The notes beneath the pieces were generated by a model. It worked only from the letters and a program-made list of their open reading frames with translations. It did no database searches and was not told where the DNA came from. DNA of 64,000 nt, from NCBI GenBank assembly GCA_040220875.1, contig JAVJVX010000005.1:521665-585664 (forward strand), written 5' to 3'. How positions within the stretch are numbered: position 1 is the stretch's first letter; each line of letters opens with the position of its first letter. Source of the DNA: Alphaproteobacteria bacterium. Its GTDB lineage: Bacteria > Pseudomonadota > Alphaproteobacteria > JAVJVX01. Made by a program: the position numbers and the translations under genes. Of this stretch, positions 13,141 through 37,657 are shown in pieces.

Positions 13141-14466
13141 TTAGCGGCCCGTCTCCTCGAGCACCGCGAGGTTGAAGTCCTCGGGGCTCAGGCCTGGCGG
13201 GTTCATTTCGCAAGCGCCACCACCCTCGATGGTGAAGAAGGTCGCGTGGTCGCGCTGGAAATCTATGTTCACACCGAACGAGGTGAACATGTAGATGGCG
13301 GGGTTGCCGTTGGCGTCACGCCATCCGTCCAGCGATTCGTAGACCCTGTTGGCAAACGAGGCCCATTTCCAGAATTCGCCCTTCTGGTCGTATCCGGCCA
13401 TGAAGTAGGGCCGCCAGATTTCGGCATCGAACCAGTTGATCTTGCGCGAATACGGATGGTATTCGGGCGGCGTCGATTCGACGACGTAGACCGGACGCAC
13501 TTCCCACATGTCCCTGGTATTCCAGTAGGGCTCGGTGCTCAGATCGATCCGCGGGAAGGTATCCTGATCGGAACTGGCGTTGGGATACCATGAGCCGCGA
13601 TCGGTGAGCGGCACGTCCTTGGCGCTGTTGGCGTGTGCGAAGACATGCGTCTTGCCGAGCAGCTTGTAGCTCTTGTACCAGCTGGGATGGGCGTTGAAGG
13701 TTTCAAGATCGTCCTGCAACTGGTCGGTTCCGCCGATGGGGTCCATCCAGGCGCCGCCCGACAGGCGGCGGATCCGGCGGACGGTGCGGATATAGGCCCA
13801 GATGTCATCCAGCTTGGGATCCCAGTACCGGATGGAAAAGGTGCCGAGGCCCTTGATGTCCTGCGGGAAGCGGGCGAAGAGCAGGCTCTTGTGGTACTGC
13901 GATCCGTCACCCTCCACGTAGGGTTGGTTGACCCGGGCCCGCATGTAGTAGCGCGCGAAGGTCCAGTGCTGGATGCGCTCGATCCCCTGCGAGCCTTCGA
14001 TGAAGACCTGGGCGAACGGGCACCAGAACTGGTCGCCGTGGGGCTGCATCGTCGTGTAGTTCCAGACGATCTTCGCAGCCACGTCCGGGTCGTCCGCGTT
14101 GATTTCCGGGAACGGAATGCCGGTCGTGTAGTTCTGGATCATGTTGGTGGTGGGATCGAGGCTGGCCTGGCCCTTGTACTGCTCGGTCAGCTGATTGATC
14201 CGCGGATCGTAGGGCATCGGATTGGTTGCCTCGACCGGGCGGATTTTCAGGTTCTTGTTGCGGACCTGCCATTCCAGCCGCTCCGGAATGAGGTCGCCCA
14301 CCTTGTGACCTTCGAAGGTCTGGGTCTTGACCTGGTCGATATTCGCAGCACTGATGACCGTCCCCGGGGCCAACTCCTCGGCGCCGGCGCTCGCCGACAG
14401 GCCGAGAGCGGCCGCGAACCCGACCGTGCCTGCGAATACGCGCATGCGGTCTCTTCTAGTTAACAT
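13141..14466 (-). CDS. DUF1329 family periplasmic protein (LolA-like), paralog 1
   Basis: Family motifs GIPFPE…KIVWNY, VRRIRRLSGGAWMD and RPVYVVESTPPEYHPYSRK…FDAEIW. Start reassigned to the ATG at 14466 with RBS GAGGAG 7 nt upstream. Signal peptide MRVFAGTVGFAAALGLSASAGA. Confidence 0.7.
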   Translation of the reverse strand: MLTRRDRMRVFAGTVGFAAALGLSASAGAEELAPGTVISAANIDQVKTQTFEGHKVGDLIPERLEWQVRNKNLKIRPVEATNPMPYDPRINQLTEQYKGQASLDPTTNMIQNYTTGIPFPEINADDPDVAAKIVWNYTTMQPHGDQFWCPFAQVFIEGSQGIERIQHWTFARYYMRARVNQPYVEGDGSQYHKSLLFARFPQDIKGLGTFSIRYWDPKLDDIWAYIRTVRRIRRLSGGAWMDPIGGTDQLQDDLETFNAHPSWYKSYKLLGKTHVFAHANSAKDVPLTDRGSWYPNASSDQDTFPRIDLSTEPYWNTRDMWEVRPVYVVESTPPEYHPYSRKINWFDAEIWRPYFMAGYDQKGEFWKWASFANRVYESLDGWRDANGNPAIYMFTSFGVNIDFQRDHATFFTIEGGGACEMNPPGLSPEDFNLAVLEETGR

Positions 14467-14764
14467 CCCGTACTCCTCAAGTTTATGAATTTGGTTTCCC
14501 GTCTCGAACCCATCGTGCTCCGAGGCAGGGCTGTCCACCCCAGACCGGTACCGATGCGTTCCCCCCAGAAAATTTCTGTCCCCCTTCTTTCGAGTGGGTT
14601 CGTGCTCAAGAATAACGGGGAATTCCATTCGCGGACAACATGAAAAGGATTTCAGACTCCGGATTTTTGACGCCCCGTCTGTCGCGCGACTCGGGACCGC
14701 GCCAACCCGCCCGCCGCGCCGAAAGCCGCGATTGCCCGTGATATCACGCGTCGCGGCGCGGCCG

Positions 14765-14781
14765 TGACCCTGCCAGGGTCA
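14765..14781. promoter_or_regulatory. Perfect 8-bp inverted repeat tgaccctg-c-cagggtca (candidate operator)
   Basis: Lies in the 370-nt intergenic region between the receiver gene and DUF1329 paralog 1. Confidence 0.25.
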
Positions 14782-14835
14782 TGAAAATATCACCAAAACG
14801 TGAGGCTCGCGTGCGCGTCGGCACGGTGCTGGAAA

Positions 14836-15246
14836 CTAGTTTTCCCGCGGTAGCCCGAGGGCCTCGCGCACGAAGCGGCGCAACTGACGGACAGGTACCG
14901 GCTTGTCGACGACGGCGTGGACTGCGACCCGTGCCCGATTGGCCCTGGCGACGGCATCAAAATCGCCTGACATCAGGATGATTTTGGCCGCCGGGTTGGC
15001 GGAGACCGCCATCTCCGCCACCTGGATCCCGTCGATCCGGGGCATGTTGATATCGATTATGAGCACGCGGGGGCGCAGTTCTTGAATCGTCGCGATCGCG
15101 CCGGTGCCGCTCAGCTCCTTGTAAATCGTGACACCATCCATTTTCAGCGCTTCGGCCACCAGCCGCACTGCCTCGATATCGTCGTCGACAACGAGGACGG
15201 CCTTGCTTTTTTTCTGGTAGTCACCTTCAACAACTTTCAGGGTCAT
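14836..15246 (-). CDS. Single-domain response-regulator receiver (CheY-like)
   Basis: VLVVDDD acidic pocket and phospho-acceptor context LIIDINMP. 136 aa. Located immediately downstream of the hybrid kinase gene. Confidence 0.85.
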   Translation of the reverse strand: MTLKVVEGDYQKKSKAVLVVDDDIEAVRLVAEALKMDGVTIYKELSGTGAIATIQELRPRVLIIDINMPRIDGIQVAEMAVSANPAAKIILMSGDFDAVARANRARVAVHAVVDKPVPVRQLRRFVREALGLPREN

Positions 15247-15256
15247 GGTCCTTGTC

Positions 15257-16648
15257 TCATTGTCTGTCCGAGATCATCTCGAGGACCTTTCGTCCGAGTG
15301 TGATGAGATCCAGCGGTTTCTCCAGAAGGGCGGTGTTGCCGTCCTGCAGATGGTCAGAGATCTCGCCGATATGGCTCGAGCCCGTGACGAAGATGACCGG
15401 CAGGCGCGGGTCACGCGCCCGGAGAAGTCGAAAAAGCGCTTTGCCATCCATGCCGGGCATGCGGAGATCGGTGATCACGATATCGGCGGCGGCGGCGGCA
15501 AAAGCGTCTGCGGCGGCGCGGCCTTCCTGGAAGGTCTCGACGACGCACCCCAGCGCGGTCAGGTAGGTCGCGACCATTTCCATCGCTTCCTTCTCGTCCT
15601 CGACGACAAAAACCCGCGCATCGATCCTGGTTACTCCGGGATTGAGGAGTCCGGGCGCGTTTTCGCTCGGGCGCGCCTCGTAGCTCACGGCTTCACCACC
15701 GCCCCCCGACTTTGCCCGCGCGCCCGAAGCCGGCAGGGTCACGCGGAACTCGGCCCCGCCCGGCACGTTCTCGACACTCACGCTGCCGCCCATTCGGCGG
15801 ACGATCGTCAATACGTTGGCGAGCCCAAGCCCCGTACCCTTACCCTCCTCCTTGGTCGTGAAAAAGGCGTCGAATATCTTGTCCTTGTGTGCCGCGACGA
15901 CGCCGCCGCCCGTATCACGTACCGTGAACCATGACATGTTGAGGGCGGCTTCTTCGGCAAGGTAGAGCGAGATTTCGCCGATCGGGCCGTCGCCCTTTAC
16001 CGACCGACCATTCTGCGCGGGCGCATCGCGCGCATTCTGCACGACCGCATCGCGTGCATTCTGCACGACCGCATCGCGCGCATTCTGCACAAGGTTGATG
16101 ACGATCTGTTCCACCTGAATGGCGAAACCCGTCGTCAACAGATGACTCTGCGCCACATCGACATTGAAACGGATGTGTGCGCGCTCCAGTTCGGCCTCGA
16201 GAAGCCGGGCCGCGCCAAGCAGCGCCTGGCTGAGCAGGAAATCCGAGGGCCGGCCCCCTTCCTTGCGGGCGAAACCCCGCATGTGGCGGATCATCTCGGC
16301 CATGCGCTGGGTTTGTCGCCGAATGGCACGAAAACGCGCGATCAGGGGCGAAGTGCCGTTCTCATCCGACATGATCGCCATATCGGCCTCCATGCGGATG
16401 ACATTGAGCGGCTGGTTCAGCTCATGGGTCAGGGTGGCCGCCATCTGGCCCAGAGACGCCATCTTCTGGGTCTGGACGAACTGGCTTTGCAGCAATTCGC
16501 GTTCGGTCGTATCACGGCCGGTCAGGATATAGATCTGCCGCCCACCGAGAGACATGCGGGTCAGGGCGGCATCGAAGGGAAACTTGCGTCCGGAAGGGCT
16601 TGCTCCCGAAAGACGCATGAATTTTGTCGCCGCCTCGTCATCCTCCAC
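15257..16648 (-). CDS. Hybrid sensor histidine kinase (HisKA-HATPase-REC); 3' part of a frameshifted PAS-kinase gene
   Basis: H-box LTHELNQPL, N-box NLVQNARDA (triplicated in tandem), G-box GTGLGL, and a C-terminal receiver (VFVVEDE…ITDLRMPGMDG). The N-terminus begins mid-PAS domain (RKFPFDAALTRMSLGGRQIYILTGRDTTERE). Confidence 0.8.
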   Translation of the reverse strand: MEDDEAATKFMRLSGASPSGRKFPFDAALTRMSLGGRQIYILTGRDTTERELLQSQFVQTQKMASLGQMAATLTHELNQPLNVIRMEADMAIMSDENGTSPLIARFRAIRRQTQRMAEMIRHMRGFARKEGGRPSDFLLSQALLGAARLLEAELERAHIRFNVDVAQSHLLTTGFAIQVEQIVINLVQNARDAVVQNARDAVVQNARDAPAQNGRSVKGDGPIGEISLYLAEEAALNMSWFTVRDTGGGVVAAHKDKIFDAFFTTKEEGKGTGLGLANVLTIVRRMGGSVSVENVPGGAEFRVTLPASGARAKSGGGGEAVSYEARPSENAPGLLNPGVTRIDARVFVVEDEKEAMEMVATYLTALGCVVETFQEGRAAADAFAAAAADIVITDLRMPGMDGKALFRLLRARDPRLPVIFVTGSSHIGEISDHLQDGNTALLEKPLDLITLGRKVLEMISDRQ

Positions 16649-18035
16649 CGGCCATCAGGTGCTTCAGGTTTTCTGCCTCGTAGGTGCTGAAAAGAACATT
16701 CACGGGTGCACCGATCGTATCGTGTTCGTTCCGGCCGAAGACCCGCTGGGCGGCACGATTGAGCGATTCGATCAGACCGCCGGGGCTGATCGTCACGATG
16801 GCCTCGCCCGCCTGCTCCAACACGGTGCGGATGCGGCGCTCCTGCGCCATCAGATCCGCTTCGGCCTTCTTTCGCGGGGTGATGTCCGAAAAGGTATCGA
16901 CGATGCCATCCCTGAACGCGATAGCCCTGACCTCGAGCCAGACATCGCCCTCCGCGGTTGGCTGGCGATACTCAAATTGCTGCAGTTGCGATGTTTCAAT
17001 CGCATCAACGAATTTTTGAAACAGGCCTGTGTCCCGTGCTTCGGGAAAGGCCCCGAGCAGGGAATTTCCGACAAGTGTTCCGCCCCGATAGCGCAGCAAC
17101 CTCTGGGCTGCGCGGTTCACCAGGTCGTTCCTGAAGTCGACGATCCGGCCCGTGTCATCCCGAATGGTCGTCAATTTGGCGATGCCGATGGAAGACGCCT
17201 CGAAAATCCCCTCAATGAGAGCGAGCGCCGCATCCCGTTCGGTCATGGTCTGACGTTCTTCCGTCACATCGAGCGATATGCCCCCCAGGCCGACGAGGGC
17301 GCCATCCGAAGCGGTGACGGGAAACTTGATCGATTCGAAAATTCGTTCGCGGCCATTGAGCACAGCCATCTCATCGACGGTAACGGTTTTTCCGGCCTTC
17401 ATCACCGCGAGGTCGTTCTCACGCAGTCTATTGCCCAGATCGGTCGGGTGAATTTCCTGGTCCGTCCGCCCGATCATGTCTTCCGGGTTTAGCCCGTAGA
17501 ATTCGGACCCGTAGGTACTGTGCAGCAGGTATCTTCCGTCCGGGGTCTTGAAATAGACCGCAGCCGGCACGGCGTGCAGGAAGGCCAGGAACCGGGCCTC
17601 AAGATCCTTGTGCAGTTTTTCGAGGCGCTGCACCTGATCCAGGCCGGCGACCGGATTGGCCTCGCGCAGGCTGACGATGAGGCGCTCGTCCATGGGGTTC
17701 AGGCGGATCAGGAAATCGGTTCCCTCATGATCCTTGAAACGGTGCAGGAGGCTTTCCGGCCTGACCTGATCGAGGACACGGGACAGGATGCGCGCGAATC
17801 CGTCGGGCAGGGGCGCCGGCATCACAGCGGCCAGCGACGAGAGATCGCCGGCACTGCTGGCCAGCAATCGCGCCTTCCGGTTGCGATAGAGACAGATGAA
17901 GTCCTCGAGCCGTTCGCCCGGCCCCTGGCGTTCGACGAAATAGACCGCCTCGTCGGCGGTTTCGACGACCGCCCCCAGCATGTCCCGTGGCAAGGAGGCG
18001 ACTCGCCAGACTTGAGGTTTTGGGGCTGATGACAC
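16638..18035 (-). CDS. Multi-PAS sensor segment; 5' part of the frameshifted hybrid histidine kinase gene
   Basis: Several PAS-like repeats. It ends GRNEHDTIGAPVNVLFSTYEAE…, the first half of a PAS domain whose second half continues in the +1 frame at the start of ORF 15257..16648. Confidence 0.75.
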   Translation of the reverse strand: MSSAPKPQVWRVASLPRDMLGAVVETADEAVYFVERQGPGERLEDFICLYRNRKARLLASSAGDLSSLAAVMPAPLPDGFARILSRVLDQVRPESLLHRFKDHEGTDFLIRLNPMDERLIVSLREANPVAGLDQVQRLEKLHKDLEARFLAFLHAVPAAVYFKTPDGRYLLHSTYGSEFYGLNPEDMIGRTDQEIHPTDLGNRLRENDLAVMKAGKTVTVDEMAVLNGRERIFESIKFPVTASDGALVGLGGISLDVTEERQTMTERDAALALIEGIFEASSIGIAKLTTIRDDTGRIVDFRNDLVNRAAQRLLRYRGGTLVGNSLLGAFPEARDTGLFQKFVDAIETSQLQQFEYRQPTAEGDVWLEVRAIAFRDGIVDTFSDITPRKKAEADLMAQERRIRTVLEQAGEAIVTISPGGLIESLNRAAQRVFGRNEHDTIGAPVNVLFSTYEAENLKHLMAGGG

Positions 18036-21099: not shown

Positions 21100-22212
21100 C
21101 TAGGCGAGGGCGGCCACATCCAGAAGGCCGCCCGTCACGATATTGTTGGGCGACTTGAATGTCGGGATGACGTATTTCCCGATCAGTTCGATCGAACGCA
21201 TGAGCTCCTCGTGTTTCATGATCCCGTCCAGGCGCAGGATGACTTCGTCATAACCGAGCGCCTGAAGGCGGGTAATCTGCTCGATGAAGTAATCGGGTGT
21301 CCCCACCATCAGTCCCGGTGTCGTGCTCTGCACGTAATCAATATCGTTGATGTGCGACTGGATCTTCTCGATCTGGTCCATGTACTTGTAATCGGGTGAC
21401 CGCTTGGCGAGATTTTTGTAAATTTCGATGACTGCGTGGAAAAATTCGATCGTGGTCGGACCGCCCTGCTCCATCGCGTCCTTCTTTGTCTCGGCACAGT
21501 AGGCCGGAAGAACCAGAAATGAGAGAGAGTTGGTCACGAACTTCCCGACCTGTTTTGTCGGCGCGGCGATCTCCTTCTGATAGATCCGGGCGCATTCCTC
21601 GGCGTAGTCCCAGCCGAAATAACTGTCCCACGCCATCGCGCCGATCCCCTTCTCGCCGGCGATCTTGTGCATTTCAAGACTGGTCGTCGCGACATAGATA
21701 GGCGGGTGCGGGTTTTGCAGCGGCTTGGGCGTGAGGTAGACCGGCGTTTTCATATCCCAGTATTTTCCGTGGAACTCTACCTGCTCCTCCGTCATGGCCT
21801 GGACGATGAAATCCAGGGATTCATTCCATTGGGCGCGGGTCTCGGTCGGATCGACGCCCATCGCGTCCATGGTGATGATCGAGTTGGATCGGCCGGTCCC
21901 GAACTCGGCCCGGCCATCGGAGACGAGATCCAGAGTTGCAAGCTGCTCGGCGATCCGCAGCGGGTGATTGAACTTGATCAGGAGGCGGACCATGTGGCGC
22001 AGCTTGATACGGCTCGTGTGGGCGGCGACAGTGCCGTAAAAAACTTCCGTCGCCCCCATCCCGAAATCGCGCAGGAAGTGCTGCTCGGACGAACCCCAGA
22101 AATCGAAGCCCATTTCTTCCGCCAGCACGATCTCGTCGATCATCTCCTTGTAGCGGCGATGATGGGTCGTGCCGTGAGGCACCGTGGCCTCGTGAATAAG
22201 TCCGAACCGCAT
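21100..22212 (-). CDS. LLM-class flavin-dependent (luciferase-like) monooxygenase
   Basis: TIM-barrel LLM features (MRFGLIHE…, …LRLDG…). Start reassigned to the ATG at 22212 with RBS GAGGAG. Confidence 0.85.
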   Translation of the reverse strand: MRFGLIHEATVPHGTTHHRRYKEMIDEIVLAEEMGFDFWGSSEQHFLRDFGMGATEVFYGTVAAHTSRIKLRHMVRLLIKFNHPLRIAEQLATLDLVSDGRAEFGTGRSNSIITMDAMGVDPTETRAQWNESLDFIVQAMTEEQVEFHGKYWDMKTPVYLTPKPLQNPHPPIYVATTSLEMHKIAGEKGIGAMAWDSYFGWDYAEECARIYQKEIAAPTKQVGKFVTNSLSFLVLPAYCAETKKDAMEQGGPTTIEFFHAVIEIYKNLAKRSPDYKYMDQIEKIQSHINDIDYVQSTTPGLMVGTPDYFIEQITRLQALGYDEVILRLDGIMKHEELMRSIELIGKYVIPTFKSPNNIVTGGLLDVAALA

Positions 22213-23039: not shown

Positions 23040-25847
23040 TCATATCAGGCCGGCGTTTTCCGCCATTCGAACCGCAGCAAGACGACGGCGGACGCCCAGC
23101 TTCTGATAAATGTGGCGTATGTGCCAACGAACCGTCGTAATTCGGATCTTGAGGTGCTGGGCAATTTCACTGTCGGAAAGCCCGGCGCCCATCGCGCGCA
23201 GAACCTCAGCCTCCCGCGGCGTCAACAGGTTCTCGCTGACCGAAGCGACCATGGTGGCAGGCCCCGCCTTGCTCTGCATGAATTTATTGCAGGCCGCGAA
23301 AAACCTGTCGAGGTCGCGCGTGCCCACGAGGCGCGTGGCCTGGTCACGCAAGAGCTGCAGAGTTGGCCAGAGCCATGACAATTCATCATAAACTGTTCGC
23401 CCGAAACCATGCGAATTCGCGAGCCGCGCCGTGGCGCCCAGAACCTCGGCGGCCTTCGCCGTGGTGCCTAACCGGCCATGGAGGCCCACACGCAACAAAT
23501 TTATTTTCAGGAGCGGCCTAAAGGCTCCACCCGCGTCGAGCACCCGGGAGATCGCCTCTAGTGCGGCCGAGGCTTCCTGTAATAATCCTTCGTCTTCGCG
23601 ACCGGCGAGGAGGGCGGCGCGGGCAAATTTTTCGTGCAGCCCCAGGCTTTCCAATGTCAACCCGCGCTTTGACGCCAAACGGAAAGGCGGCGGCGCGCTT
23701 TTCAGGGTGTCGGAGACGATTCCGGCAACGAACGGGAGAGTTTCGATATCACGACCGTCCCGAGCGATCCGAACCACCTGCCCGACGGAGGGAGGGAGCG
23801 CGGCTTGTCGCAAGATCTCGTTCTCGATGGCCACAGAAATTCTTGGATACCCGTATCGTTGGGCGAAATCCTGCGCTTCCTGCGCGACCGTTCTGAAAGT
23901 CCCGGTTGGTCCCCGTTCAGCCATTTTGAGGCGCAGCACATGCGCCACACCAAAAAGATCCGGCAGGGCAAAACTCTGCAGGCAGGGCAGTATTTCTCCG
24001 ATCTGCGCGTTCAGGCCTTCCAGCTCGTTCAATTCGTAACGAATCTCCATTTGCCCGACGATAGCCATTGACTCGAGTGTACTGCGGGTGTCGCCCAAGG
24101 ACTGGGCAAGCTCGACCGCCAGCTGGAAGGAGCGAGACGCCGATTGCCACTTGCCGAGATCACCATGGATGATGCCGGAAATGCAGCAATGATAGATCTT
24201 GCCCAATTGCGCATCGGTCCTGGCATAGAGGCTTTCTGCGCGTTCCAGGATGGGGGTGGCGCTATTGAGATCGCCGGCGTGGCGTGTGGCAAGAGCCAGG
24301 CAAGACCACGTCGTCGCCTCGTCATACAGATTTGCTCCCGAAGACTTGTATGTGTCGAGCCACTGGGTGGCCTGCTCGCGAACGCGGGGCAGATCGTCCT
24401 GAAACAGGGAGAGCATCATCTCACGATGCTTGATCCGGCCTTCCAGGGATAGAAATTTCGCCGCAGAAATCCGCTTTGTCTTTTGGAGGGTTTTGAGACG
24501 TCCGCGTATCCGTTTTAAGACCTGCTCGGCTTCGTCAAAAGATAACTTGCCCTCAAGCGCCCAGACCTGATTCAACAGGATATCAGGAAACCGGTCCACG
24601 ACCGCCATCGGCAGTCCTTCCACGGAATCAAGCAGTTCCTTGATCTTGCCCCGAGAAAAAAGATCCTGTGAGATTGAGCTCACAATGCCGGCGGCCTCGT
24701 CCGTCAATCCCGCAGCAAGGGCGTGTTCAAGCAAATTTTCCTGCGACACGTCCCCGCGACTGAGGAACCTAAAGGCATATTTGTGCCATTGCCTTTTTTT
24801 GTCGGGGGCCTCTTCCTGGAAGATACGGCGAAGGCTCTCGCACAATGTCCGATTTAACTGGAGTTTGCCGGGAACGGATGCCGATGACGGCTCCAGAAGA
24901 AATTCCCGGTCCCGCGCATCCTGGAATGCGTCAAGCAAGGCCGGGGTCCTCGACAAAGAACGGACGTCGTCAATGCCAAACTGTCCAAGTGCGGCCAGTT
25001 GAAACAGGGAATGGCGGGCGGCGCGCGATCGAACCGCCAGAAATTTGGCTCGGACATAATCGTCGAGGATTTCCTCGATCTGACGTTTTGTCGGCCTCGA
25101 TCCGGCCCGGAATTTCTGGTGATGATGCGAGACATGAGCAATGGGCCCGATCCAGCCATCGCTGGCATCGATAAGATCGGAAATGGGCATAGGTGGATCT
25201 TCCGTGCCCGTCACAAGCGAATAATACGTTTGGAGCGATTGCGCGGTATAACGGAGCTTGTCGTGCGTAAAGACTTCCGGAAAAACCGCGCCGTTCGGGA
25301 CCTCTTCCAGAAGAGGGGCTGGCAGCCGCCGGCCGAGCACGACCAGCTTCAATCCTGACTCAGGCGAGGCACCAAGCTCCCCAAGGAGTCTGGCCGCAGC
25401 GCCATTGTCCAATTGCTCGACGTCATCGATTACCAGCGTCGCCGAGATATCCCGCGCTGAAAATTCGTCCAGTAGAAGTGCAGGAAAAAGCATGCGGAGT
25501 GCCGGATTGTTTTGCCGGCGCAGGGTGGCAATACCACTGCCGACAACGAGCCCCGCCCGCGAGAGAGCTGCGACAATGTCACCGAACAACCGGCCCGGCT
25601 CGCTATGGGCGGCCCCCAGACGAAGCCAGGCGACCGTTTGACCGCGCTTGATCGCCCCATCGGCCCAAATGGCGAGAAGGGTCGATTTTCCCCAACCAGG
25701 CGGAGCGACGAGATAGCTTGGGGTTTCGCCGAGCGAGTCGAGGACCGGAGCGGCAGCCGCCGGCGGTGGCAGCGCAAAGGGTGGCAGGGCCACCGGACGG
25801 AAACGGATCTCTCCGCTTAACTGGGCAGAGGCGAGGGGACTGTCCAT
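23040..25847 (-). CDS. Large ATP-binding LuxR-family regulator (MalT/LAL-like), copy 2
   Basis: P-loop GWGKSTL. 935 aa. C-terminal LuxR HTH (EAEVLRAMGAGLSDSEIAQHLKIRITTVRWHIRHIYQKL). Confidence 0.85.
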   Translation of the reverse strand: MDSPLASAQLSGEIRFRPVALPPFALPPPAAAAPVLDSLGETPSYLVAPPGWGKSTLLAIWADGAIKRGQTVAWLRLGAAHSEPGRLFGDIVAALSRAGLVVGSGIATLRRQNNPALRMLFPALLLDEFSARDISATLVIDDVEQLDNGAAARLLGELGASPESGLKLVVLGRRLPAPLLEEVPNGAVFPEVFTHDKLRYTAQSLQTYYSLVTGTEDPPMPISDLIDASDGWIGPIAHVSHHHQKFRAGSRPTKRQIEEILDDYVRAKFLAVRSRAARHSLFQLAALGQFGIDDVRSLSRTPALLDAFQDARDREFLLEPSSASVPGKLQLNRTLCESLRRIFQEEAPDKKRQWHKYAFRFLSRGDVSQENLLEHALAAGLTDEAAGIVSSISQDLFSRGKIKELLDSVEGLPMAVVDRFPDILLNQVWALEGKLSFDEAEQVLKRIRGRLKTLQKTKRISAAKFLSLEGRIKHREMMLSLFQDDLPRVREQATQWLDTYKSSGANLYDEATTWSCLALATRHAGDLNSATPILERAESLYARTDAQLGKIYHCCISGIIHGDLGKWQSASRSFQLAVELAQSLGDTRSTLESMAIVGQMEIRYELNELEGLNAQIGEILPCLQSFALPDLFGVAHVLRLKMAERGPTGTFRTVAQEAQDFAQRYGYPRISVAIENEILRQAALPPSVGQVVRIARDGRDIETLPFVAGIVSDTLKSAPPPFRLASKRGLTLESLGLHEKFARAALLAGREDEGLLQEASAALEAISRVLDAGGAFRPLLKINLLRVGLHGRLGTTAKAAEVLGATARLANSHGFGRTVYDELSWLWPTLQLLRDQATRLVGTRDLDRFFAACNKFMQSKAGPATMVASVSENLLTPREAEVLRAMGAGLSDSEIAQHLKIRITTVRWHIRHIYQKLGVRRRLAAVRMAENAGLI

Positions 25848-26003
25848 GGCGCGTCCGGTCTTCGGTCATTTGGAAACGAAGGTCCACCACAGAGCCTTGT
25901 GACGCATGATCCCCCAGTCGTGGCAGGTTTGTCCATAAACCGATTAGCTGGGGTCGAGGAAAAATGGGGGCGCCTCTCAGACGCCCCCGGAGAAAGCAGG
26001 ATC

Positions 26004-27275
26004 CTATCGCCCGCCATCCAGGACGCGCAGGCTGACCGAATCCTCCTCGACCGTCGGATCGTTGAACTTGGGGTCGAGGATATACATGGTCGCATGCATG
26101 CGCTGGAGATCTATTGTATGCCCCTGGCCGCTCCGCACGATCTGACGCTCGGGCGTCGCGTTATTTGGCGATCCCCACACCTTGAACAGCTGAACCATCT
26201 GCTTCCAGCGTTCGCCTTTCCGATCGAAGAATTCACCCAGGAAGAGGCTGTATTCCTCGGCATCCATATAGATGATTTTCTTGGAGTAAGGGTGATACTC
26301 CGGCGGGGTCGCCTCGATGATGTAAACTTCCCGCGGCTCCCAGAACGCGATCGGGTTCCAGTAAGGTGCCTCCCCCAGATTTACCGCCGGGAACCGTTCA
26401 TCGGCGACGCCGAGGCCCAGGACGCCTTTCAGGAAGGGGCCGGGATTATTGGCTGAGACCAGCATTTTCTGCCGGCCCAGCACCTTGTAGGACGGGTACC
26501 AGGCTGGATGGGCGTTGAAGATATCGAAATCGTCTTGCAACTGGTCTGTCCCGCCGATGGGGTCCATCCAGGCGCCGCCCGAAAGCCGGCGAATCCGGCG
26601 CACGGTCCGGACATAGGCCCAGGTGTCGTTCAGCTTGGGTTCGACATAGCGGATCGCGAAGGTCCCGAGCCCCTCGATGTCATGGGGCTGAAGGGCAAAC
26701 AGGAGCTGTTTGTTGAAAATTGTGCCGTTGCCCGCAGTGTGGCCGTTCCCTACCAGACGCCCGACCATCTTGTAGCTCAACTGGGTCCAGATCTGCTCGC
26801 GATCGAGCCCCTGGGTGCCGTCGATGAGGACCATGGCGAACTCGGGATTGTAGAAGGAATCCCCTTCCTGGCGACCATAGGTGTAATTCCAGATCAGCTT
26901 CAGTCCGGCTTTGGGATCGGACTCGATTTCAACCTCCGGAAAAGGCGCCCCAGCAACCCAGTTCATCGGGGTCTTGGTGGCCGGATCGAGTTGGATCTTT
27001 CCGGCATTGGCCGCTGTCAGCCTGTCCATGAGAGGGTCGCGTGGCCAAGGTGTCGGGTCCATGATGCGAAGCTTAAGATTGTAGTTGCTGACCAGGTGCC
27101 CGACCCCGTCCGCCAGCATGTCGGACACCGGTGTGCCGTCGACGGTCTTGTCCAGACTTTGCTGAAGGTTGTCCTTGGAAATTATGGTGTTTTCGGGCAG
27201 TGCCTCGGCACTGGCCCCGGTCAGCGTGACCGCGCTGAGCATCAGCGTGGTCGCAATGAACCCCATTCTCTTCAT
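26004..27275 (-). CDS. DUF1329 family periplasmic protein, paralog 2
   Basis: Signal peptide, then GAPFPEVEIESDPKAGLKLIWNYT, VRRIRRLSGGAWMDPIGGTD and PREVYIIEATPPEYHPYSKK. RBS GGGGAG lies upstream of the ATG at 27275. Confidence 0.7.
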   Translation of the reverse strand: MKRMGFIATTLMLSAVTLTGASAEALPENTIISKDNLQQSLDKTVDGTPVSDMLADGVGHLVSNYNLKLRIMDPTPWPRDPLMDRLTAANAGKIQLDPATKTPMNWVAGAPFPEVEIESDPKAGLKLIWNYTYGRQEGDSFYNPEFAMVLIDGTQGLDREQIWTQLSYKMVGRLVGNGHTAGNGTIFNKQLLFALQPHDIEGLGTFAIRYVEPKLNDTWAYVRTVRRIRRLSGGAWMDPIGGTDQLQDDFDIFNAHPAWYPSYKVLGRQKMLVSANNPGPFLKGVLGLGVADERFPAVNLGEAPYWNPIAFWEPREVYIIEATPPEYHPYSKKIIYMDAEEYSLFLGEFFDRKGERWKQMVQLFKVWGSPNNATPERQIVRSGQGHTIDLQRMHATMYILDPKFNDPTVEEDSVSLRVLDGGR

Positions 27276-27370
27276 CGGCTTTTCTCCCCAGGATTTGGGC
27301 GGCCCCCATTCAGGCAGGCCGCACCGGTCGCATTCGAATTATCTTTTTCTGGTTTAGGGGGCGGTTGGGC

Positions 27371-28621
27371 TCAGTATTTTATTTCCGAGGCTTTCTTCCC
27401 TCGCACCATCTGGTCCGCCGCTTCGTACAGGTGACGGCAGGTGATTTCCTGATCGGAAAATTGAAGGAACGGCACGGCACCGCTTTTCAACCCTTGCTGC
27501 GTGCTTTCCTCCGTACTGAGGTCTTCGAGAAGCCCGTCCCTGAACTGCACGACCAAAACCTCTTGGGCCAGGCGCTCACCAATGGTCTGAGGCTTGGGCG
27601 AATACATCTTGCAGACCCAGTGAGTTTCATCCACGGCGACCGGCCAAAACTCGTAGGTGAAATACCAGTCGGGGGCCATGTCGATGAAATTGATGGGAAA
27701 GATGACGTTGACCTCGAAGGCGTGATTGGCATCGCCATCCGGGTTTATGCCCGGTGGCGGGCCTTCAGGCAGGCCCCGCGCCTCGCGGTTACGGACCATC
27801 CCGCCGCCGGAATACTTGTAGGCGAGTTGCTCGATCTCCGTGGGCTGGTAATTGGGATTTCGCGGGATCGTCGCAGAGTGGTGGGGGCCGTAAATCCGGA
27901 CAGAAGAGATTCGGGCGGCTTCGCGCGGTGCCTCCACGAAGGCCGGCCCCAGCCAGTTCCGATGCACCCAGCCGACATGATATAATTCATGGAAGGCGTC
28001 GATGAAGACCTTCCAGTTACATTTGACTTGTGCCGACCATTTGCCGATCTGCACCATCTTGTCGAATGGATAGCCGTCGAGCTGTTCCCCGAGTCCGCCC
28101 AGATAGTCTTTCAGGTTCTGCTCCGGCTCCGGCTCCGCGTTGACAAAGATGAACCCGTTCCAAGTTTCTGTTGCGATGGGTGCCAACGCGAGCGTCGCCT
28201 CGTCCAAGTCGAAGAATCTGTCCCTGTCCGTTACGTGGACGAGTTTGCCCATGTTGTCGTAAACCCAGCCGTGGAAGCCGCAGGAAAAGAACTTCGTATT
28301 GCCGTGCTGCTCGTAGCAAACCTGATTGCCCCGGTGCCGGCACGAATTGTGGAATGCGCGAACAATGCCGTCTTTACCGCGCACAACGATAAGATTGGTG
28401 TTCAGGATCGAGATTGGCTTCTGGAAATAGTCACCCGGTTCCGGAATTTCCTGCTCCCGGCCAACCATCATCCAGGTTTTCTTGAATATGTTTTCGCGCT
28501 CCTTCTCGAAATATTCAGGAGATGTATAGGCCTCCGCCGGGATCGGTCCCGTTCCCATGCTGGGGAATTCCGGAGCGAAAAATTTCTCGTAATCGTTCGA
28601 CGTCTTGTCTGTTACTGCCAT
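27371..28621 (-). CDS. Rieske non-heme iron oxygenase, alpha-only type (about 416 aa)
   Basis: Rieske motif CRHRGNQVC…CGFHGW. The ATG at 28621 is preferred over the GTG at 28633 used by the ORF track. Confidence 0.85.
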   Translation of the reverse strand: MAVTDKTSNDYEKFFAPEFPSMGTGPIPAEAYTSPEYFEKERENIFKKTWMMVGREQEIPEPGDYFQKPISILNTNLIVVRGKDGIVRAFHNSCRHRGNQVCYEQHGNTKFFSCGFHGWVYDNMGKLVHVTDRDRFFDLDEATLALAPIATETWNGFIFVNAEPEPEQNLKDYLGGLGEQLDGYPFDKMVQIGKWSAQVKCNWKVFIDAFHELYHVGWVHRNWLGPAFVEAPREAARISSVRIYGPHHSATIPRNPNYQPTEIEQLAYKYSGGGMVRNREARGLPEGPPPGINPDGDANHAFEVNVIFPINFIDMAPDWYFTYEFWPVAVDETHWVCKMYSPKPQTIGERLAQEVLVVQFRDGLLEDLSTEESTQQGLKSGAVPFLQFSDQEITCRHLYEAADQMVRGKKASEIKY

Positions 28622-28719
28622 TGGGGTCCCCACGAATCATCTGCTGTGCCGTTTATCGGAAATTGGCCTTAGAACTCAGGTGATAATCGGGAACAGGGCC
28701 AGGTCTTCGACCGTTTCGG

Positions 28720-29052
28720 TCAAAAGCCCGTTCCGTGAATGTTGTAGCGTTCGATTTCGAACGAATTCGGAACTCGTACTTGTCCGTAAAGTTCAATGCA
28801 GGGCGCGATCTCGATAAGCATGCAAGACAGGTTGAGAAGGTTTTGCTCCTTCTCGTCGAGAGTCCCGATATCGAACTGATCGAGATGCGCCGCTATTTTT
28901 TCCATTTTCGGCAGCACGGTTTCGTAAAATTCCCCGATTTCTTCCATCGTGCTTTTGTGGCGACGCTCGTTCCGTGCCTTCTCGGTGGGCAAGGCCCATC
29001 GGTCAAGGAGCGGCCCGAGTTCTCCGAATCCTTCCGGTAATTGACCCGTCAT
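28720..29052 (-). CDS. Hypothetical small protein (110 aa) in a locally lower-GC patch
   Basis: Clean ORF downstream of, and on the same strand as, the Rieske gene. No recognisable motif. Confidence 0.3.
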   Translation of the reverse strand: MTGQLPEGFGELGPLLDRWALPTEKARNERRHKSTMEEIGEFYETVLPKMEKIAAHLDQFDIGTLDEKEQNLLNLSCMLIEIAPCIELYGQVRVPNSFEIERYNIHGTGF

Positions 29053-29077
29053 CTCTTTGCTTCACTCCCGATCGCCT

Positions 29078-29096
29078 ATCCTGGGCCCGGCCCAGG
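29078..29096. promoter_or_regulatory. 19-bp perfect palindrome tcctgggcc-c-ggcccagga (candidate operator)
   Basis: Located 26 nt upstream of the start of ORF 28720..29052, in a 340-bp divergent intergenic region. Confidence 0.3.
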
Positions 29097-29393
29097 ATTT
29101 CCGCAGGGAAGGGAAAACAATTTTCGAATCCGTGGATACCTGACTTTTAGAAGGGGGTTTCCGGCCCGCCGGTTTCGCCCTGGCGCTCCCCTCATTTTTA
29201 AGGGGATCGGGGCAAGAAAGGGGCCGGGAACGCGCATGGGGGAGGCCCGGTTCCGCCTGAACGGTGAGAGACTTGCTTTCTTTGATCCCCCTGGCTTAAG
29301 CAAGGCGCGCGGGACCGGGCTGAGGTTGGGGCCCCCGCCCGCGGCCACCTGCGGATGGCCCCGGCAAGCGGCCCACACGGAATTTAAGGGGGT

Positions 29394-30257
29394 ATGATGA
29401 CCATTCACACAGACCTGCTCGGCACCGAGACTTATTTCGTCGAGACGCCGATCGGGCGGACGCGGGTGATTGAGGCAGGCGAGGGGCCGGCACTCTTTTT
29501 ATTGCATGGCGGCGGCGGGCACGCCGAGGCCTTCAGCCGCAACCTCATGCGGCTGGCCCAGGGGTGCCGGGCCATATCGCTCGACCTGCTCTGGCACGGG
29601 CTTTCGAGCGCACCCGCCTTCGAGGATCCCAACTGGCTCAAGCAATTCACGCGACAGATACTCGAGCTGATGGACGCGCTCGGGATCGACAAGGCGAGCG
29701 TCGAGGCCGAATCGGCGCCGGGCTGGGTCCCCATCGACATGGCCCTGAACCATTCCGACCGGGTGGAGAAGATCATCCTCAACAATATCTGGGGCGTTCA
29801 GTTCAAGCCGGGCACCGTCTCGGAGCATGAAGGATCATCCGACAACTTTCTCAAGACCAGCCTCCGCGCCCTCGAAAATCCCACGATGGACACGATCCGC
29901 GAGCGCATGCGCCCGCTTTTTCCGGCGGGCGGTCTGACCGAGGAAATTGTCGCCGTGCGTCGGGCCCTTTGGTCGCGCCCGGCGACCCGCGAGGGTATGC
30001 GCGGTTTTTACGAGCATCTCTTCGCGCCGGAAACAAATGCCCTTCAGTTCACCGAAGCCGATGTCGCCGCCATCAGACACCCCGCTCTCGTGCTGTGGAG
30101 CGACGGCAACGCCCTTAATGGCCCCGACGCGGGCGAGCGCCTGCACGGCCTCATCCAGGGCTCCCGTTTCCATGTGATCGAGAACGCCGGCCAGTGGTCG
30201 CAATGGGAGCAACCGGAGGAGCATGACCGGCTGCTTCTGGAATTCCTCGCTGCCTGA
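29394..30257 (+). CDS. Alpha/beta-fold hydrolase (meta-cleavage-product hydrolase-like)
   Basis: Oxyanion-hole LFLLHGGGG. The nucleophile elbow is atypical (EAESAPG). Strong RBS AAGGGGG upstream. Confidence 0.75.
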   Translation: MMTIHTDLLGTETYFVETPIGRTRVIEAGEGPALFLLHGGGGHAEAFSRNLMRLAQGCRAISLDLLWHGLSSAPAFEDPNWLKQFTRQILELMDALGIDKASVEAESAPGWVPIDMALNHSDRVEKIILNNIWGVQFKPGTVSEHEGSSDNFLKTSLRALENPTMDTIRERMRPLFPAGGLTEEIVAVRRALWSRPATREGMRGFYEHLFAPETNALQFTEADVAAIRHPALVLWSDGNALNGPDAGERLHGLIQGSRFHVIENAGQWSQWEQPEEHDRLLLEFLAA

Positions 30258-34415: not shown

Positions 34416-34426
34416 GGCTCCGGTCC

Positions 34427-35818
34427 CTAAAACGGATGCGCCCCATGGGCGCCGATGCTCATGACGTATTGCAGGACGAACTGGTTGTCCGTTTTGCTGG
34501 CGGCAAGCGTCTCGCGATTATACTGGAAGCGCAGGCGCTCGAACTCGCTGTTTGTCCAGTCCGCCATGAAGGCAAGAGCCTCCGGGTCTTCGCCCGCCGG
34601 GTCGAGAGCGCTGCCGAGAAGGCCGGCCGGCACCGACGGGGCATCGAGGCGGCTGTAGCGCACACCGACACGCCAGGGCGGCGCGAATTTGTAGACGCTC
34701 TGCACATACCAGCCGCTGGCATCATCATCGAAACCGATCGGGCCCGTCCCCGCATCCGTGTCTTCATAGACGCCATCCTCGTCACGCCAAAAGAACTCGC
34801 CCTGCAGGATCAGTTCCGACTGACGCGGGTTGCCCGTGAGGGCCCAGGTGTAGCGCAGATCGGCTATGTAGAGCCTCGAGTCGCCGGCAAAAGTCACGGC
34901 CCCCTCATTCGCTTCGCGGGAGACGATATCACTGTCGAGCACATATCCGCCGATGCGCCAGTTATGCCGGAGACCGAAATCACCGCCCACGCGTCCGAAG
35001 GCGGACCACGATTCTACTCCATCTTCCGAGCCGCCGGCCGGGAAGTCCTCGCCCCGAAAAACGCCACCGCCGATTTCCGCAAAGAAGGGAGGCGGCAACA
35101 CCCAGGCTGCCTCCACCCCATCGTCGTTATAGGATTTGTTCAGGAAGGTCCGATACGGCAAAGGCCGGTCAGCGAAATCATCGGCGTGGGCGTGAATTTC
35201 ATTCAGGTAGCCGAGAGTCCAGAAAGCCCGGCCGGCCTTGAGACGAAATCCGTCGGGCAACGGCAGGCCCGGCAGGGTCTGGATGTAGGCCTCCTCCAGC
35301 TCAATCTTGTCTTCCCCGTCCTCACGCACGACCGCGACCGTCGAACTGCCATAGAACTTGTCATCGACATTGGCGGAGAAATTGAGCTCCGATTCGTCGA
35401 TGGCCAGCCCCTCGCGCCCGCGCTCGCCCTCTTCGCCGATCGCGAAGCCGGCGATCTCCGAGTCTTCGGCCGAGAAGGTCGAAAACTTGCCATTGAGGAT
35501 GACGCCAATGGACGGGTTGAAGCTGTTATCGCGCACGACCCGCTTGCCGGCATTGGCAGAGACGGGGCTGGCCGGTGGCCTCGCGGCCGGGGCCGCCACG
35601 GTGGAGGTGGGCGGTGCGGCCGGCGCCTGTCGCTGTCTCGCTTCCACTGCCTGAAGCTGTGCTTCGAGCGCGGTGATGCGTTGTTCATAGGCGCTTCTTA
35701 TCTGCTGAAGTTCCTGGCGCAAGGCCTCGACTTCAGGGGATTGGGCGCCGGCCGGCGCTGCGTTCAGGCAAAGTGGGACGGCCGCGGTGATGGCGGCACG
35801 GCACAGTATCGTGCGCAT
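34427..35818 (-). CDS. Putative outer-membrane porin with N-terminal coiled coil
   Basis: Signal peptide, then a Gln/Ala-rich coiled coil (EALRQELQQIRSAYEQRITALEAQLQAVEARQRQ), then a beta-rich Gly/Tyr/Asp-rich region ending …GAHGAHPF. Confidence 0.5.
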   Translation of the reverse strand: MRTILCRAAITAAVPLCLNAAPAGAQSPEVEALRQELQQIRSAYEQRITALEAQLQAVEARQRQAPAAPPTSTVAAPAARPPASPVSANAGKRVVRDNSFNPSIGVILNGKFSTFSAEDSEIAGFAIGEEGERGREGLAIDESELNFSANVDDKFYGSSTVAVVREDGEDKIELEEAYIQTLPGLPLPDGFRLKAGRAFWTLGYLNEIHAHADDFADRPLPYRTFLNKSYNDDGVEAAWVLPPPFFAEIGGGVFRGEDFPAGGSEDGVESWSAFGRVGGDFGLRHNWRIGGYVLDSDIVSREANEGAVTFAGDSRLYIADLRYTWALTGNPRQSELILQGEFFWRDEDGVYEDTDAGTGPIGFDDDASGWYVQSVYKFAPPWRVGVRYSRLDAPSVPAGLLGSALDPAGEDPEALAFMADWTNSEFERLRFQYNRETLAASKTDNQFVLQYVMSIGAHGAHPF

Positions 35819-35873
35819 GACACTCTCCTAGTGATTTGGATGGGTGGATGAGGGCTCCGCAGGAGCCCGGTCG

Positions 35874-36233
35874 TCAGGAGAGCGTACGGGGTGGGGCGCG
35901 AATGCGGCCCGAATCGACCGGCTGGTAGCCCGGATTCTGGTCCTGGGCGAGCGGTGCGCGGGCGATATGGCGGGTGAAGGGCACCGGCAGGGCCGGCGCG
36001 TTTTCAGCGAGCCCGGTGAGCCCCTTCGCGAGCACGGCGATTTCGCACGCGGCGCCATTATGGCTGTGCGCGTCACCACCGAACTCGGTGTTGTGGTGCA
36101 GCGCGACGATTTGCGCGCCGACGAGCAGCGCGGACAGCACGAACGCCGGCAGAAATCGGCGGACGCCGGCCGGCAGGCCAGGCCACACTCCCATCTCGCA
36201 CAGTCTTGTCTGGCCGCCCCGGCGCTTGCTCAT
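35874..36233 (-). CDS. Small His-rich exported protein (possible metal-binding)
   Basis: Hydrophobic N-terminus and HHNTEFGGDAHSHNG. The start is uncertain. Confidence 0.3.
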   Translation of the reverse strand: MSKRRGGQTRLCEMGVWPGLPAGVRRFLPAFVLSALLVGAQIVALHHNTEFGGDAHSHNGAACEIAVLAKGLTGLAENAPALPVPFTRHIARAPLAQDQNPGYQPVDSGRIRAPPRTLS

Positions 36234-36361
36234 GGTCCGGACGCTAAAGAAATAGTTTGGGCGCGTCCAGCATCTCGCACCCGCTACAGGAAACCTACAA
36301 ACAGGCGGGCGAAAGGTGATAGGGTTGAGGCCGCCTCGCATCGCCGCCGCCGGAGTTCGCC

Positions 36362-37657
36362 ATGTTCTTGTTTCTTTCGGGCCGTGTCGCCGTTCTCGGA
36401 TGTCTCGCCTTATTGGTCCTGCCGCTTGCAGCGGGCGCCAGCCGTGCAGCCGGTGGCGAGCCGCTCACCGCCGGCACGCGCATAGATGCGGGCGCTCTTG
36501 CTGATTTGGAGGACCGGGAATTCCACGGCACGCGGCTGGCCGATCTTGTGACCGATCGGATCGCCTGGCAGATGCGGACTTTCGGCCTCACTCTCGAATT
36601 GGCCGACCCCAAACCCTATCCGGACGATCCGCGGTTCGAGGAAGCGACCGCGAAATTTGCCAAGGATGTGCGCTTCGATCCGGCGACCGGCCGCATCGAT
36701 GGCTGGAAGGCCGGCCTGCCCTTTCCCGAGGTCGATGCCATCAACGACCCGAATGCGGCCATCAAGATCGTCTGGAACCTCACCCACGGGCGCAACGGTG
36801 GTGACATCGTGCACAATCCGGGCGAGGTCATCCTTCTGATCGACCGGCAGGCCGGGCTGGAACGGCTGCAGCACTGGACTTTCACCAATTTCAAGATGAA
36901 AGGCATCCTTCGTTTTCCGGAGACACCGGTCCTTGGCGACGGGGACATTCTGGCCAAGACCCTGTTCTTCGCCATGAGCCCGCAGGACATCAAGGGCGTG
37001 GGGACTTTCACCATCAAATATGATACCGGCCGGCTCAACGATTCCTGGGCCTATGTGCGCGATGTGCGCCGCATCCGCCGCCTGTCGGGCTCGACCTGGA
37101 TGGACCGGATTTCGGGCACGGACTGGCTGAACGACGATTTCTCGGGATTTGGCGCCTATCCGACCTGGTATGAGGATTTCGAAATCCTTGGCCGGACGGA
37201 AGTGCTGCTGGTGGCGAACAGCCGCATGCCGACGCAGATCCTCGATGCCTCGAGCGAGAACGAGCGCTTTCCGCGTTTCGATCTGGCCTCGGCTCCCCAT
37301 TGGAATGTGATCGACGATTGGGAGCCGCGCGATGTGTATATCGTCAAGGCAACGCCGCCGGACGCCCACCCGTATGGCTACAAGATCCTCTATATCGGCG
37401 CCGATGGGTTTCATCCGTTCCTGACAGAAATGTACGACAAGGCCGGCAACCACATGAAAACCCAGATACTCGGCCAGACGCTGCGCGAAACGGTCGATGA
37501 CGTAACGCGCTGGGCCGTGCATGAGGCCTATGACATGACGGCGGACTTCCAGTCCGGACACGCGACCGCCTTCGCCTCGGCGCCGGAGGTGCAGATCAAC
37601 CCGCCCATGGCGGAGGAGGATGTCAGCCTCTCTGTCCTCGAGACGATGGGCCGTTAG
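36362..37657 (+). CDS. DUF1329 family periplasmic protein, paralog 3
   Basis: GLPFPEVDAINDPNAAIKIVWNLT, VRRIRRLSGSTWMDRISGTD and PRDVYIVKATPPDAHPYGYK. Signal peptide. Confidence 0.7.
   Translation: MFLFLSGRVAVLGCLALLVLPLAAGASRAAGGEPLTAGTRIDAGALADLEDREFHGTRLADLVTDRIAWQMRTFGLTLELADPKPYPDDPRFEEATAKFAKDVRFDPATGRIDGWKAGLPFPEVDAINDPNAAIKIVWNLTHGRNGGDIVHNPGEVILLIDRQAGLERLQHWTFTNFKMKGILRFPETPVLGDGDILAKTLFFAMSPQDIKGVGTFTIKYDTGRLNDSWAYVRDVRRIRRLSGSTWMDRISGTDWLNDDFSGFGAYPTWYEDFEILGRTEVLLVANSRMPTQILDASSENERFPRFDLASAPHWNVIDDWEPRDVYIVKATPPDAHPYGYKILYIGADGFHPFLTEMYDKAGNHMKTQILGQTLRETVDDVTRWAVHEAYDMTADFQSGHATAFASAPEVQINPPMAEEDVSLSVLETMGR

Follow-up and report, generated by a model that had tools for sequence, protein, structure and literature searches.

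A 64,000-nt stretch of an alphaproteobacterial contig (JAVJVX010000005.1, positions 521,665 to 585,664), referred to here as the window, encodes three proteins of the DUF1329 family, paralogs 1, 2 and 3. All three carry export signals, and none of their genes has beside it the DUF1302 barrel, the BNR protein or the RND pump with which this family is usually found. We propose, with about even confidence, that they are secreted, carrier-type proteins of the periplasm, each belonging to an individual catabolic unit and serving poorly soluble substrates. DUF1329 of this lineage would have been uncoupled from BNR, RND and DUF1302 and placed in or beside catabolic units; in the periplasm, each paralog would bind one substrate of low water solubility, or one class of them, and keep it soluble between the outer and inner membranes, making it available to the neighbouring pathway's oxygenases and hydrolases in the cytoplasm. 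Such a role in carrying hydrophobic substrates agrees with published hypotheses on the family.

The gene map was drawn from codon-position GC and Pfam scans, the window having a GC content of ~62%, and all position numbers count within the window. The three genes are full-length, and their products (paralogs 1, 2 and 3) scored 168, 175 and 136 bits against PF07044, far above its cut-off of 23.1, covering profile positions ~1-345 of 368. PF17131 (LolA_like) was also matched by all three, and no further family competed, which bears out the DUF1329 assignment made in a first-pass annotation of this DNA. The gene coordinates given there were correct as well, including the start of paralog 1: its open reading frame (ORF) is open up to 14628, and the ATG at 14466 has GGAG 7 nt upstream and starts a signal peptide. 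The NCBI annotation of this gene is a 434-aa version. The Shine-Dalgarno sequences before the ATG codons of paralogs 2 and 3 are GGGAG and GGAG, respectively.

The N-termini were judged by inspection, no predictor being used. That of paralog 1, MLTRRDRMRVFAGTVGFAAALGLSASAGA/EE, resembles a Sec signal peptide, and all three paralogs have the basic n-region, hydrophobic core and Ala-X-Ala-like site of a Sec-type signal peptide. A convincing lipobox or twin-arginine motif was seen in none of the three N-termini.

Paralog 2, the only one modelled, gave an AlphaFold2 model with a mean pLDDT of 91 and a pTM of 0.90. Foldseek matched this model to LolA3 9tp6 (E 2e-18), 3bk5 (2e-17) and 4z48 (2e-15), the last being a DUF1329 family protein, and the target TM-scores ranged from 0.78 to 0.85; 3buu was also matched, and the next matches were RseB, MucB and LolA. 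The match spans the C-terminal ~300 residues, and a LolA-like fold can confidently be predicted for paralog 2. The N-terminal ~110 residues are partly helical and bear conserved GxPFP and KxxWN motifs. Set against LolA/LolB, LolA3 9tp6, 3bk5, 4z48, 3buu and RseB, the paralogs share the open beta-barrel lipid-carrier fold in the C-terminal part, but identity is 7-18% (7-10% to solved LolA), the N-terminal part with its conserved motifs is extra, and a Lol pathway context is lacking. No LolA or LolB family profile of Pfam was matched by the paralogs, which hit only PF17131 and PF07044, and the window contains no LolCDE genes.

We then compared DUF1329 genes without a DUF1302 partner, hereafter orphans, with the partnered (canonical) members of the family. 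The results showed that 64 family-core positions are kept in both groups alike and that no insertion or deletion is specific to either, so the genes are under selection; about 12 positions are conserved solely in the canonical group. The first-pass annotation had listed several identical stretches shared by the three window genes. VRRIRRLSG is indeed present in all three, whereas TPPEYHPY is found in paralogs 1 and 2 only (TPPDAHPY in paralog 3), and G[IL]PFPE and IVWN occur in paralogs 1 and 3 and are replaced by GAPFPE and LIWN in paralog 2. Because these motifs are family-wide core positions, present also in DUF1302-partnered relatives, they are uninformative on recent duplication.

Recent duplication of the window paralogs was in fact rejected, as their mutual identity is 41-45% and each of them has a closer relative outside the window. 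The nearest relative of paralog 1 lies at L004:10001-11353 (58% identity), and paralog 3 groups with L004:3898-5172 (51% identity, bootstrap 100/100). Coordinate mapping placed L004 on the same contig, beginning ~4.5 kb right of the window. In an unrooted neighbour-joining tree, the canonical genes were split from twelve alphaproteobacterial orphans with a bootstrap of 90/100, and the orphans sat on long branches. Since the branches are long and the closest relatives lie outside the window, the DUF1329 expansion is, judged from these sequences, old and lineage-specific and not made of recent copies.

The partner genes were missing at every scale examined. All long ORFs of the window were compared with Pfam, and none matched DUF1302, BNR or the COG1033-type RND; a six-frame search of the window with DUF1302, BNR and RND profiles, built locally from confirmed examples, returned nothing even at E<=10, and thus no remnant. 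The absence of DUF1302 from the window, as first reported, was therefore confirmed. The first-pass annotation had also considered that a partner just outside the window would make this a standard pairing. The 10 kb of left flank hold more Rieske and hydrolase genes and no partner genes, and no DUF1302, BNR or RND gene is present in L004, with the 4.5 kb between the window and L004 outside the data read. Within its 21 kb, L004 has a further three DUF1329 genes along with six genes for Rieske alpha subunits and one luciferase-like gene. At least six DUF1329 copies thus lie within ~90 kb of one contig, with four more on related contigs, and no DUF1302, BNR or RND gene occurs in the ~160 kb read from this alphaproteobacterial lineage.

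Two sets of ORFs in the window were tried as diverged partners and rejected. Those at 51376-53379 (667 aa) and 53429-54922 (497 aa), taken as a possible DUF1302/DUF1329 pair, sit in an MBOAT/GDSL cluster, and the former has a weak, sub-threshold GDSL-like C-terminal match only. The cluster as a whole (43830-54922) encodes FkbH-like, MaoC dehydratase, GDSL-like, MBOAT acyltransferase and transglutaminase-like proteins and two large ORFs without significant Pfam matches, and its make-up suggests O-acylation of a polysaccharide or lipid. The porin-like product of 34427-35818 (minus strand; 463 aa, signal peptide, N-terminal coiled coil, C-terminal Phe, no Pfam match), taken as a possible DUF1302, belongs to a ZnuA/ABC-3 metal-uptake operon, which its gene heads.

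To compare these genes with DUF1329 loci of other lineages, loci from a one-genome-per-species scan (49 loci) and a JGI metagenome scan (80 loci) were annotated with seed proteins and local profiles. Counts were limited to DUF1329 genes with sufficient flanking sequence, that is, 82 elsewhere and 10 in the alphaproteobacterial lineage. Elsewhere, DUF1302 was directly upstream in 79/82 (36/38 + 43/44), so the usual pairing assumed at the outset was borne out. An RND pump lay within 10 kb of 74/82 of these genes, hydantoinase A/B followed DUF1329 in 39/82, and a gene resembling old yellow enzyme (OYE) lay within 10 kb of 18/82. The recurrent order was BNR, RND, DUF1302, DUF1329, hydantoinase A, hydantoinase B and isochorismatase, with which precomputed Pfam labels agreed. 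This BNR-to-isochorismatase cluster is very strongly conserved in Gamma- and Betaproteobacteria (loci L006, L010-L058, L060 and L065-L145; e.g. L017:425-15848), often with an OYE/FadH-like gene upstream. In the sample, one canonical cluster was assigned to Alphaproteobacteria, in a 'Minwuia sp.' metagenome-assembled genome (L024); it shares 99.0% identity with Stutzerimonas degradans (L053) across 14.8 kb, which probably means that the contig was mis-binned or the DNA transferred very recently.

On the contigs of the window's own lineage (the window, L004, L005, L007 and L062), DUF1302 or RND was found within 10 kb of 0/10 DUF1329 genes. A Rieske alpha gene lay within 3 kb in 8/10 of the same genes and a LAL regulator gene in 5/10. 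An eleventh copy, on L059, has Rieske genes downstream and is too near the contig end for an upstream DUF1302 to be scored. At paralog 1, the second half of the canonical cluster is still in place, with hydantoinase A/B and isochorismatase genes following the paralog in the same order, and paralog 3 retains one frequent neighbour, the OYE/FadH-like gene. Other orphans, of two gammaproteobacterial types (L045/L073 and L048), likewise have OYE and isochorismatase neighbours. Proteins identical to those of the window occur in GCA_040217455.1 and several other assemblies, and the best named relatives of a helicase from the window are from Roseospirillum and Roseospira (<=67% identity); the host is an uncultured, deep-branching alphaproteobacterium with no close cultured relative.

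As shown in Table 1, every gene between 7.3 and 29 kb except one, which is SnoaL-like, is encoded on the minus strand. In the order of transcription, the upstream part runs from the small 110-aa protein through the Rieske alpha subunit, paralog 2 and a LAL regulator to the luciferase-like monooxygenase; the downstream part runs from a second LAL regulator through the PAS sensor, hybrid kinase, response regulator, paralog 1 and MarR regulator to hydantoinase A, hydantoinase B, the gamma-like subunit and the isochorismatase. The two strongest terminator-like hairpins of the stretch are those directly 3' of the stops of paralogs 1 and 2. The former was the strongest site of the terminator scan, in which the regional total of sites was not above chance. 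The hairpin after paralog 2 indicates that this gene is the last of an operon with the small protein and the Rieske subunit, and that the following LAL gene forms a unit of its own; a weak promoter-like site lies with the hairpin between the two. Paralog 3 is alone on the plus strand, also beside the ZnuA operon.

In the first-pass annotation each paralog was placed beside a Rieske oxygenase or a MalT-like regulator gene. This description fits only paralog 2, with its Rieske gene upstream and a LAL gene 156 bp downstream. For paralog 1, the LAL gene is 3.8 kb upstream on the same strand and the nearest Rieske gene is 8 kb away; for paralog 3, the corresponding distances are 10.5 kb and 7.7 kb, and the direct neighbour is the OYE/FadH-like reductase.

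Table 1 DUF1329 genes of the window and the features around them.
Feature	Position	Strand	Remarks
DUF1329 paralog 1	13141..14466	(-)	441 aa from ATG at 14466; PF07044 E 4e-49
DUF1329 paralog 2	26004..27275	(-)	423 aa; PF07044 E 5e-51
DUF1329 paralog 3	36362..37657	(+)	431 aa; PF07044 E 3e-39; LolA_like E 2e-17; apparently monocistronic
Isochorismatase-family hydrolase	7330-8049	(-)	Pfam
Acetone-carboxylase-gamma-like small subunit	8065-8349	(-)	Pfam
Hydantoinase B	8346-10178	(-)	Pfam
Hydantoinase A	10182-12281	(-)	Pfam; best NCBIfam caprolactamase alpha, below cut-off
MarR-type (HTH_27) regulator	12396..13070	(-)	Pfam; between paralog 1 and hydantoinase genes
Terminator-like hairpin	13084..13115	(-)	26 nt past paralog 1 stop; 14-bp stem, 9 G-C pairs, T-rich tail
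Response regulator	14836-15246	(-)	Pfam; upstream of paralog 1, co-directional
Hybrid histidine kinase	15257-16648	(-)	Pfam; upstream of paralog 1, co-directional
PAS sensor	16638-18035	(-)	Pfam; upstream of paralog 1, co-directional
LAL/MalT-type regulator	18258-21026	(-)	Pfam; upstream of paralog 1, co-directional
Luciferase-like flavin monooxygenase	21100..22212	(-)	PF00296; 370 aa in public assemblies; NCBIfam LLM-class only, below cut-off
Short SnoaL-like gene	22419-22814	(+)	Between LAL regulator and luciferase-like gene
LAL/MalT-type regulator	23040..25847	(-)	GerE + TPR_MalT; downstream of paralog 2
Terminator-like hairpin	25966..25988	(-)	16 nt past paralog 2 stop; 10-bp stem, 8 G-C pairs, T-rich tail
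Rieske oxygenase alpha	27371..28621	(-)	416 aa; PF00355 + PF00848; 95 bp upstream of paralog 2
Small helical protein	28720..29052	(-)	110 aa; heads Rieske/DUF1329 operon; no Pfam or NCBIfam match
OYE/FadH-like Fe-S flavoenzyme	37663..39891	(-)	PF00724 + Pyr_redox; convergent with paralog 3, the stops 5 bp apart

The Rieske alpha protein encoded upstream of paralog 2 is without a signal peptide, is similar to solved oxygenases in its N-terminal part only and did not reach the NCBIfam equivalog level; a PDB sequence search identified no substrate class for it. NCBIfam gave no equivalog name for the Rieske, luciferase-like, OYE or hydantoinase proteins in general, and Pfam detected no Rieske beta subunit (PF00866), ferredoxin or reductase gene in the 64-kb window; these partners may be encoded elsewhere. 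The Rieske alphas at 695-1885, 3888-5120 and 27371-28621, together with L063:13087-14256, are of the homotrimeric Aromatic_hydrox and Ring_hydroxyl_A types. A small outer-membrane beta-barrel gene (6027-6698, plus strand; PF13505, 223 aa) lies within the Rieske/hydantoinase block, and its product might offer hydrophobic substrates another way in through the outer membrane. The DUF1329/Rieske-rich DNA is of lower GC content (0.58-0.59 at 24001-30000 of the window, 0.565 in L004 and 0.532 in L062) than its flanks (0.63-0.67), which hints at accessory or acquired islands.

For the small protein at the head of the paralog 2 operon, AlphaFold2 predicted four helices (pLDDT 94), and no fold match was found in the PDB. 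An exhaustive search detected homologs in 660 representative clusters at E<=0.001, and a word-based search matched the protein itself only. Its paralogs stand beside Ring_hydroxyl_A-type Rieske alpha genes at L004:5384-5716, L004:13239-13565, L007:11407-11772 and L147:3318-3677. Beta-less Rieske oxygenases may have in it an accessory protein not described before.

Published work on the family provides several points of comparison. Price et al. found the four genes BNR, RND, DUF1302 and DUF1329 to be co-fit in several bacteria and proposed the export of an envelope or cell-wall component; DUF1329 was also listed in phenanthrene, p-cresol and steroid clusters. Thompson et al. showed that PP_0765 and PP_0766 of P. 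putida, controlled by a LuxR-type regulator, are required on Tween 20 and butyl stearate. In the Foldy paper, DUF1329 was predicted by multimer modelling to bind both the DUF1302 barrel and BNR/RND, and substrate transport was proposed; a 2026 survey again reported the association of DUF1302, DUF1329 and LuxR, with a predicted complex. Both sets of predictions put DUF1329 between the barrel and the pump. In Castellaniella, AmeB is required for growth on monoterpenes, and AmeABCD was presented as a system for monoterpene efflux. A partnered DUF1329 of Delftia was tied genetically to growth on phenanthrene, and DUF1302 and DUF1329 were found in Delftia outer-membrane vesicles. DUF1329/DUF1302 genes of Betaproteobacteria belong to aromatic-catabolism regulons, with a proposed role in coping with toxic aromatics, and in Zoogloea DUF1329 genes adjoin a Rieske gene. 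That DUF1329 goes together with aromatic catabolism and LuxR-type regulators is therefore already on record. The orphan expansion is not described in the DUF1329/DUF1302 literature examined, and our literature search found no paper joining LolA-like with Rieske.

Compared with the four-gene envelope module of BNR/YCF48-like, RND/MMPL (COG1033), DUF1302 and DUF1329 genes (e.g. Sama_1588-1591, P. putida PP_0765/PP_0766 with PP_2018/PP_2019, and Castellaniella AmeABCD), the window genes have in common the DUF1329 family with its conserved core, the location in hydrophobic or aromatic catabolic DNA, and, near paralogs 1 and 2, a LuxR/LAL-type regulator (cf. PP_0767), none being near paralog 3. The hydantoinase A/B and isochorismatase genes kept by paralog 1 and the OYE-like neighbour kept by paralog 3 are further likenesses. 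Unlike that module, they have no adjoining DUF1302, BNR or RND gene, exist as many diverged copies instead of one, and include one copy within a Rieske operon. A second type of known system is the DUF1329 gene of catabolic islands, as in Delftia sp. Cs1-4 (phnK / DelCs14_1722), Comamonas testosteroni (ORF61), Thauera (pipB) and the phenol-hydroxylase cluster of Zoogloea oleivorans. There too the gene lies amid aromatic or steroid degradation genes, Rieske alpha included, but the copies are single, DUF1302 is named beside DUF1329 in Thauera (pipA) and Zoogloea, and an RND gene is near phnK.

Several observations weigh against the proposal of pathway-bound periplasmic carriers. Ligand or transport evidence has been reported for no member of the DUF1329 family, the published models do not separate import from export, and no inner-membrane transporter gene adjoins any of the three paralogs. 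The invariant motifs are polar (RRxRRLSG, GGTDQLxDD, HPY) and look more like a protein interface or an active site than a greasy pocket. One orphan of another organism (L146:6649-7911), 45% identical to paralog 2, stands amid the housekeeping genes recG, Sdh5 and mfd with no catabolic or partner genes near. The small-protein/Rieske pair also occurs without DUF1329, on an unrelated contig (L147).

The strength of the Rieske link was examined by an adjacency test on 11 DUF1329 genes, in which the local Rieske density was held fixed; the null is conservative because the regions had been picked for DUF1329 and not for Rieske genes. A Rieske alpha gene lay within 500 bp in 4/11 against 1.5 expected, which is borderline only (P ~0.05), and within 3 kb in 8/11 against 6.3 expected, which is not significant (P 0.18). 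These figures also count against the proposal, as does the finding that the identity matrices of DUF1329 and the neighbouring Rieske proteins were uncorrelated (Mantel, seven pairs, r -0.14, p 0.81). That DUF1329 and its Rieske neighbour were duplicated together is thus unsupported, at the low power that seven pairs allow. The earlier statement that the paralogs sit with oxygenases holds in that Rieske-rich catabolic DNA surrounds the lineage copies, and fails in that the gene for only one paralog, paralog 2, has a physical link to a Rieske gene. The Rieske link is real at the level of the gene island, and at the operon level for about half of the copies; the pairing is not a fixed co-inherited module.

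Among the alternatives, one is a serious if minority possibility, namely that one or a few DUF1302/BNR/RND sets lie elsewhere in the genome and that the DUF1329 paralogs are interchangeable, pathway-regulated adaptors that dock there. In that case the known system would be present in its usual form, except that the gene for its carrier had been multiplied and scattered. No family-core position has been lost from the orphans; the polar invariant motifs, which might be docking surfaces, are among those kept, and on sequence grounds the retention of these motifs leans slightly towards a retained protein partner. In Salinisphaera sp. PC39 (L048), a DUF1329 gene without an adjacent barrel gene has a DUF1302 gene ~7 kb away, and Price et al. 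noted in P. stutzeri additional DUF1329 paralogs beside a single partnered pair. The ~160 kb of lineage sequence free of DUF1302, BNR and RND argue in the other direction, and so does the probable mis-binning of L024, the sole alphaproteobacterial canonical cluster. We think it rather doubtful that the genome lacks DUF1302 and RND altogether and that its copies, at least nine to ten and diverged, are free-standing, substrate-specific periplasmic binders, each tuned to the adjoining pathway; DUF1329 would in that case be the lipid-carrier-fold counterpart of the ABC and TRAP solute-binding proteins.

A function in envelope maintenance or efflux, in which DUF1329 moves a lipid or envelope component outwards or helps to expel toxic hydrophobics and intermediates and the island location reflects protection from solvent stress and not the supply of substrate, seems unlikely to us. 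It would be consistent with the export of a cell-wall component that Price et al. derived from pleiotropic phenotypes, with AmeABCD as a monoterpene efflux system, with the betaproteobacterial regulon study on toxic aromatics, with the presence of DUF1302 and DUF1329 in Delftia vesicles and with the housekeeping context of the L146 orphan. However, export requires an energised inner-membrane pump, and none was found near the ten orphan genes; paralog 2, moreover, is co-oriented with an oxygenase gene 95 bp away and shares its terminator.

We give a similarly low probability to the view that the neighbours are incidental and that DUF1329 merely accumulates in lower-GC, Rieske-dense catabolic islands without a functional tie. 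The weak result of the local randomisation, the lack of co-divergence, the absence of an adjacent Rieske gene at paralogs 1 and 3 and the GC dips in DUF1329/Rieske-rich stretches all point this way. On L007/L008, however, which come from the same sample as the window contig with similar coverage, a module of LAL, DUF1329, small protein and Rieske genes stands alone amid unrelated genes; the spacing of paralog 2 is operon-like, with a common terminator, and hydantoinase and OYE neighbours recur in distant lineages. Finally, a periplasmic hydrolase (esterase) acting on esters, once suggested by Thompson et al. for the P. putida pair to fill a missing ester-hydrolysis step and compatible with near-invariant Ser, Asp and His residues in the family, is very improbable, as the fold is LolA-like and not a known hydrolase fold, Ser232 is conserved only ~90%, and that group later favoured transport from structure predictions.

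DUF1329 and DUF1302 are widespread in Proteobacteria and show clear fitness phenotypes on hydrophobic substrates, with no established biochemical function. If our reading of the paralogs as pathway-bound periplasmic carriers is right, a carrier-like component that has multiplied, split from the barrel and the pump and become wired to catabolic units would be a natural dissection of this system. If it is true that the genome has no DUF1302, DUF1329 must work alone, and the enzymes next to it would allow its ligand to be guessed. A single barrel serving many carriers would point to a modular uptake design for poorly soluble carbon in marine or environmental Alphaproteobacteria. Either outcome would narrow how Gram-negative bacteria carry hydrophobic substrates across the periplasm.

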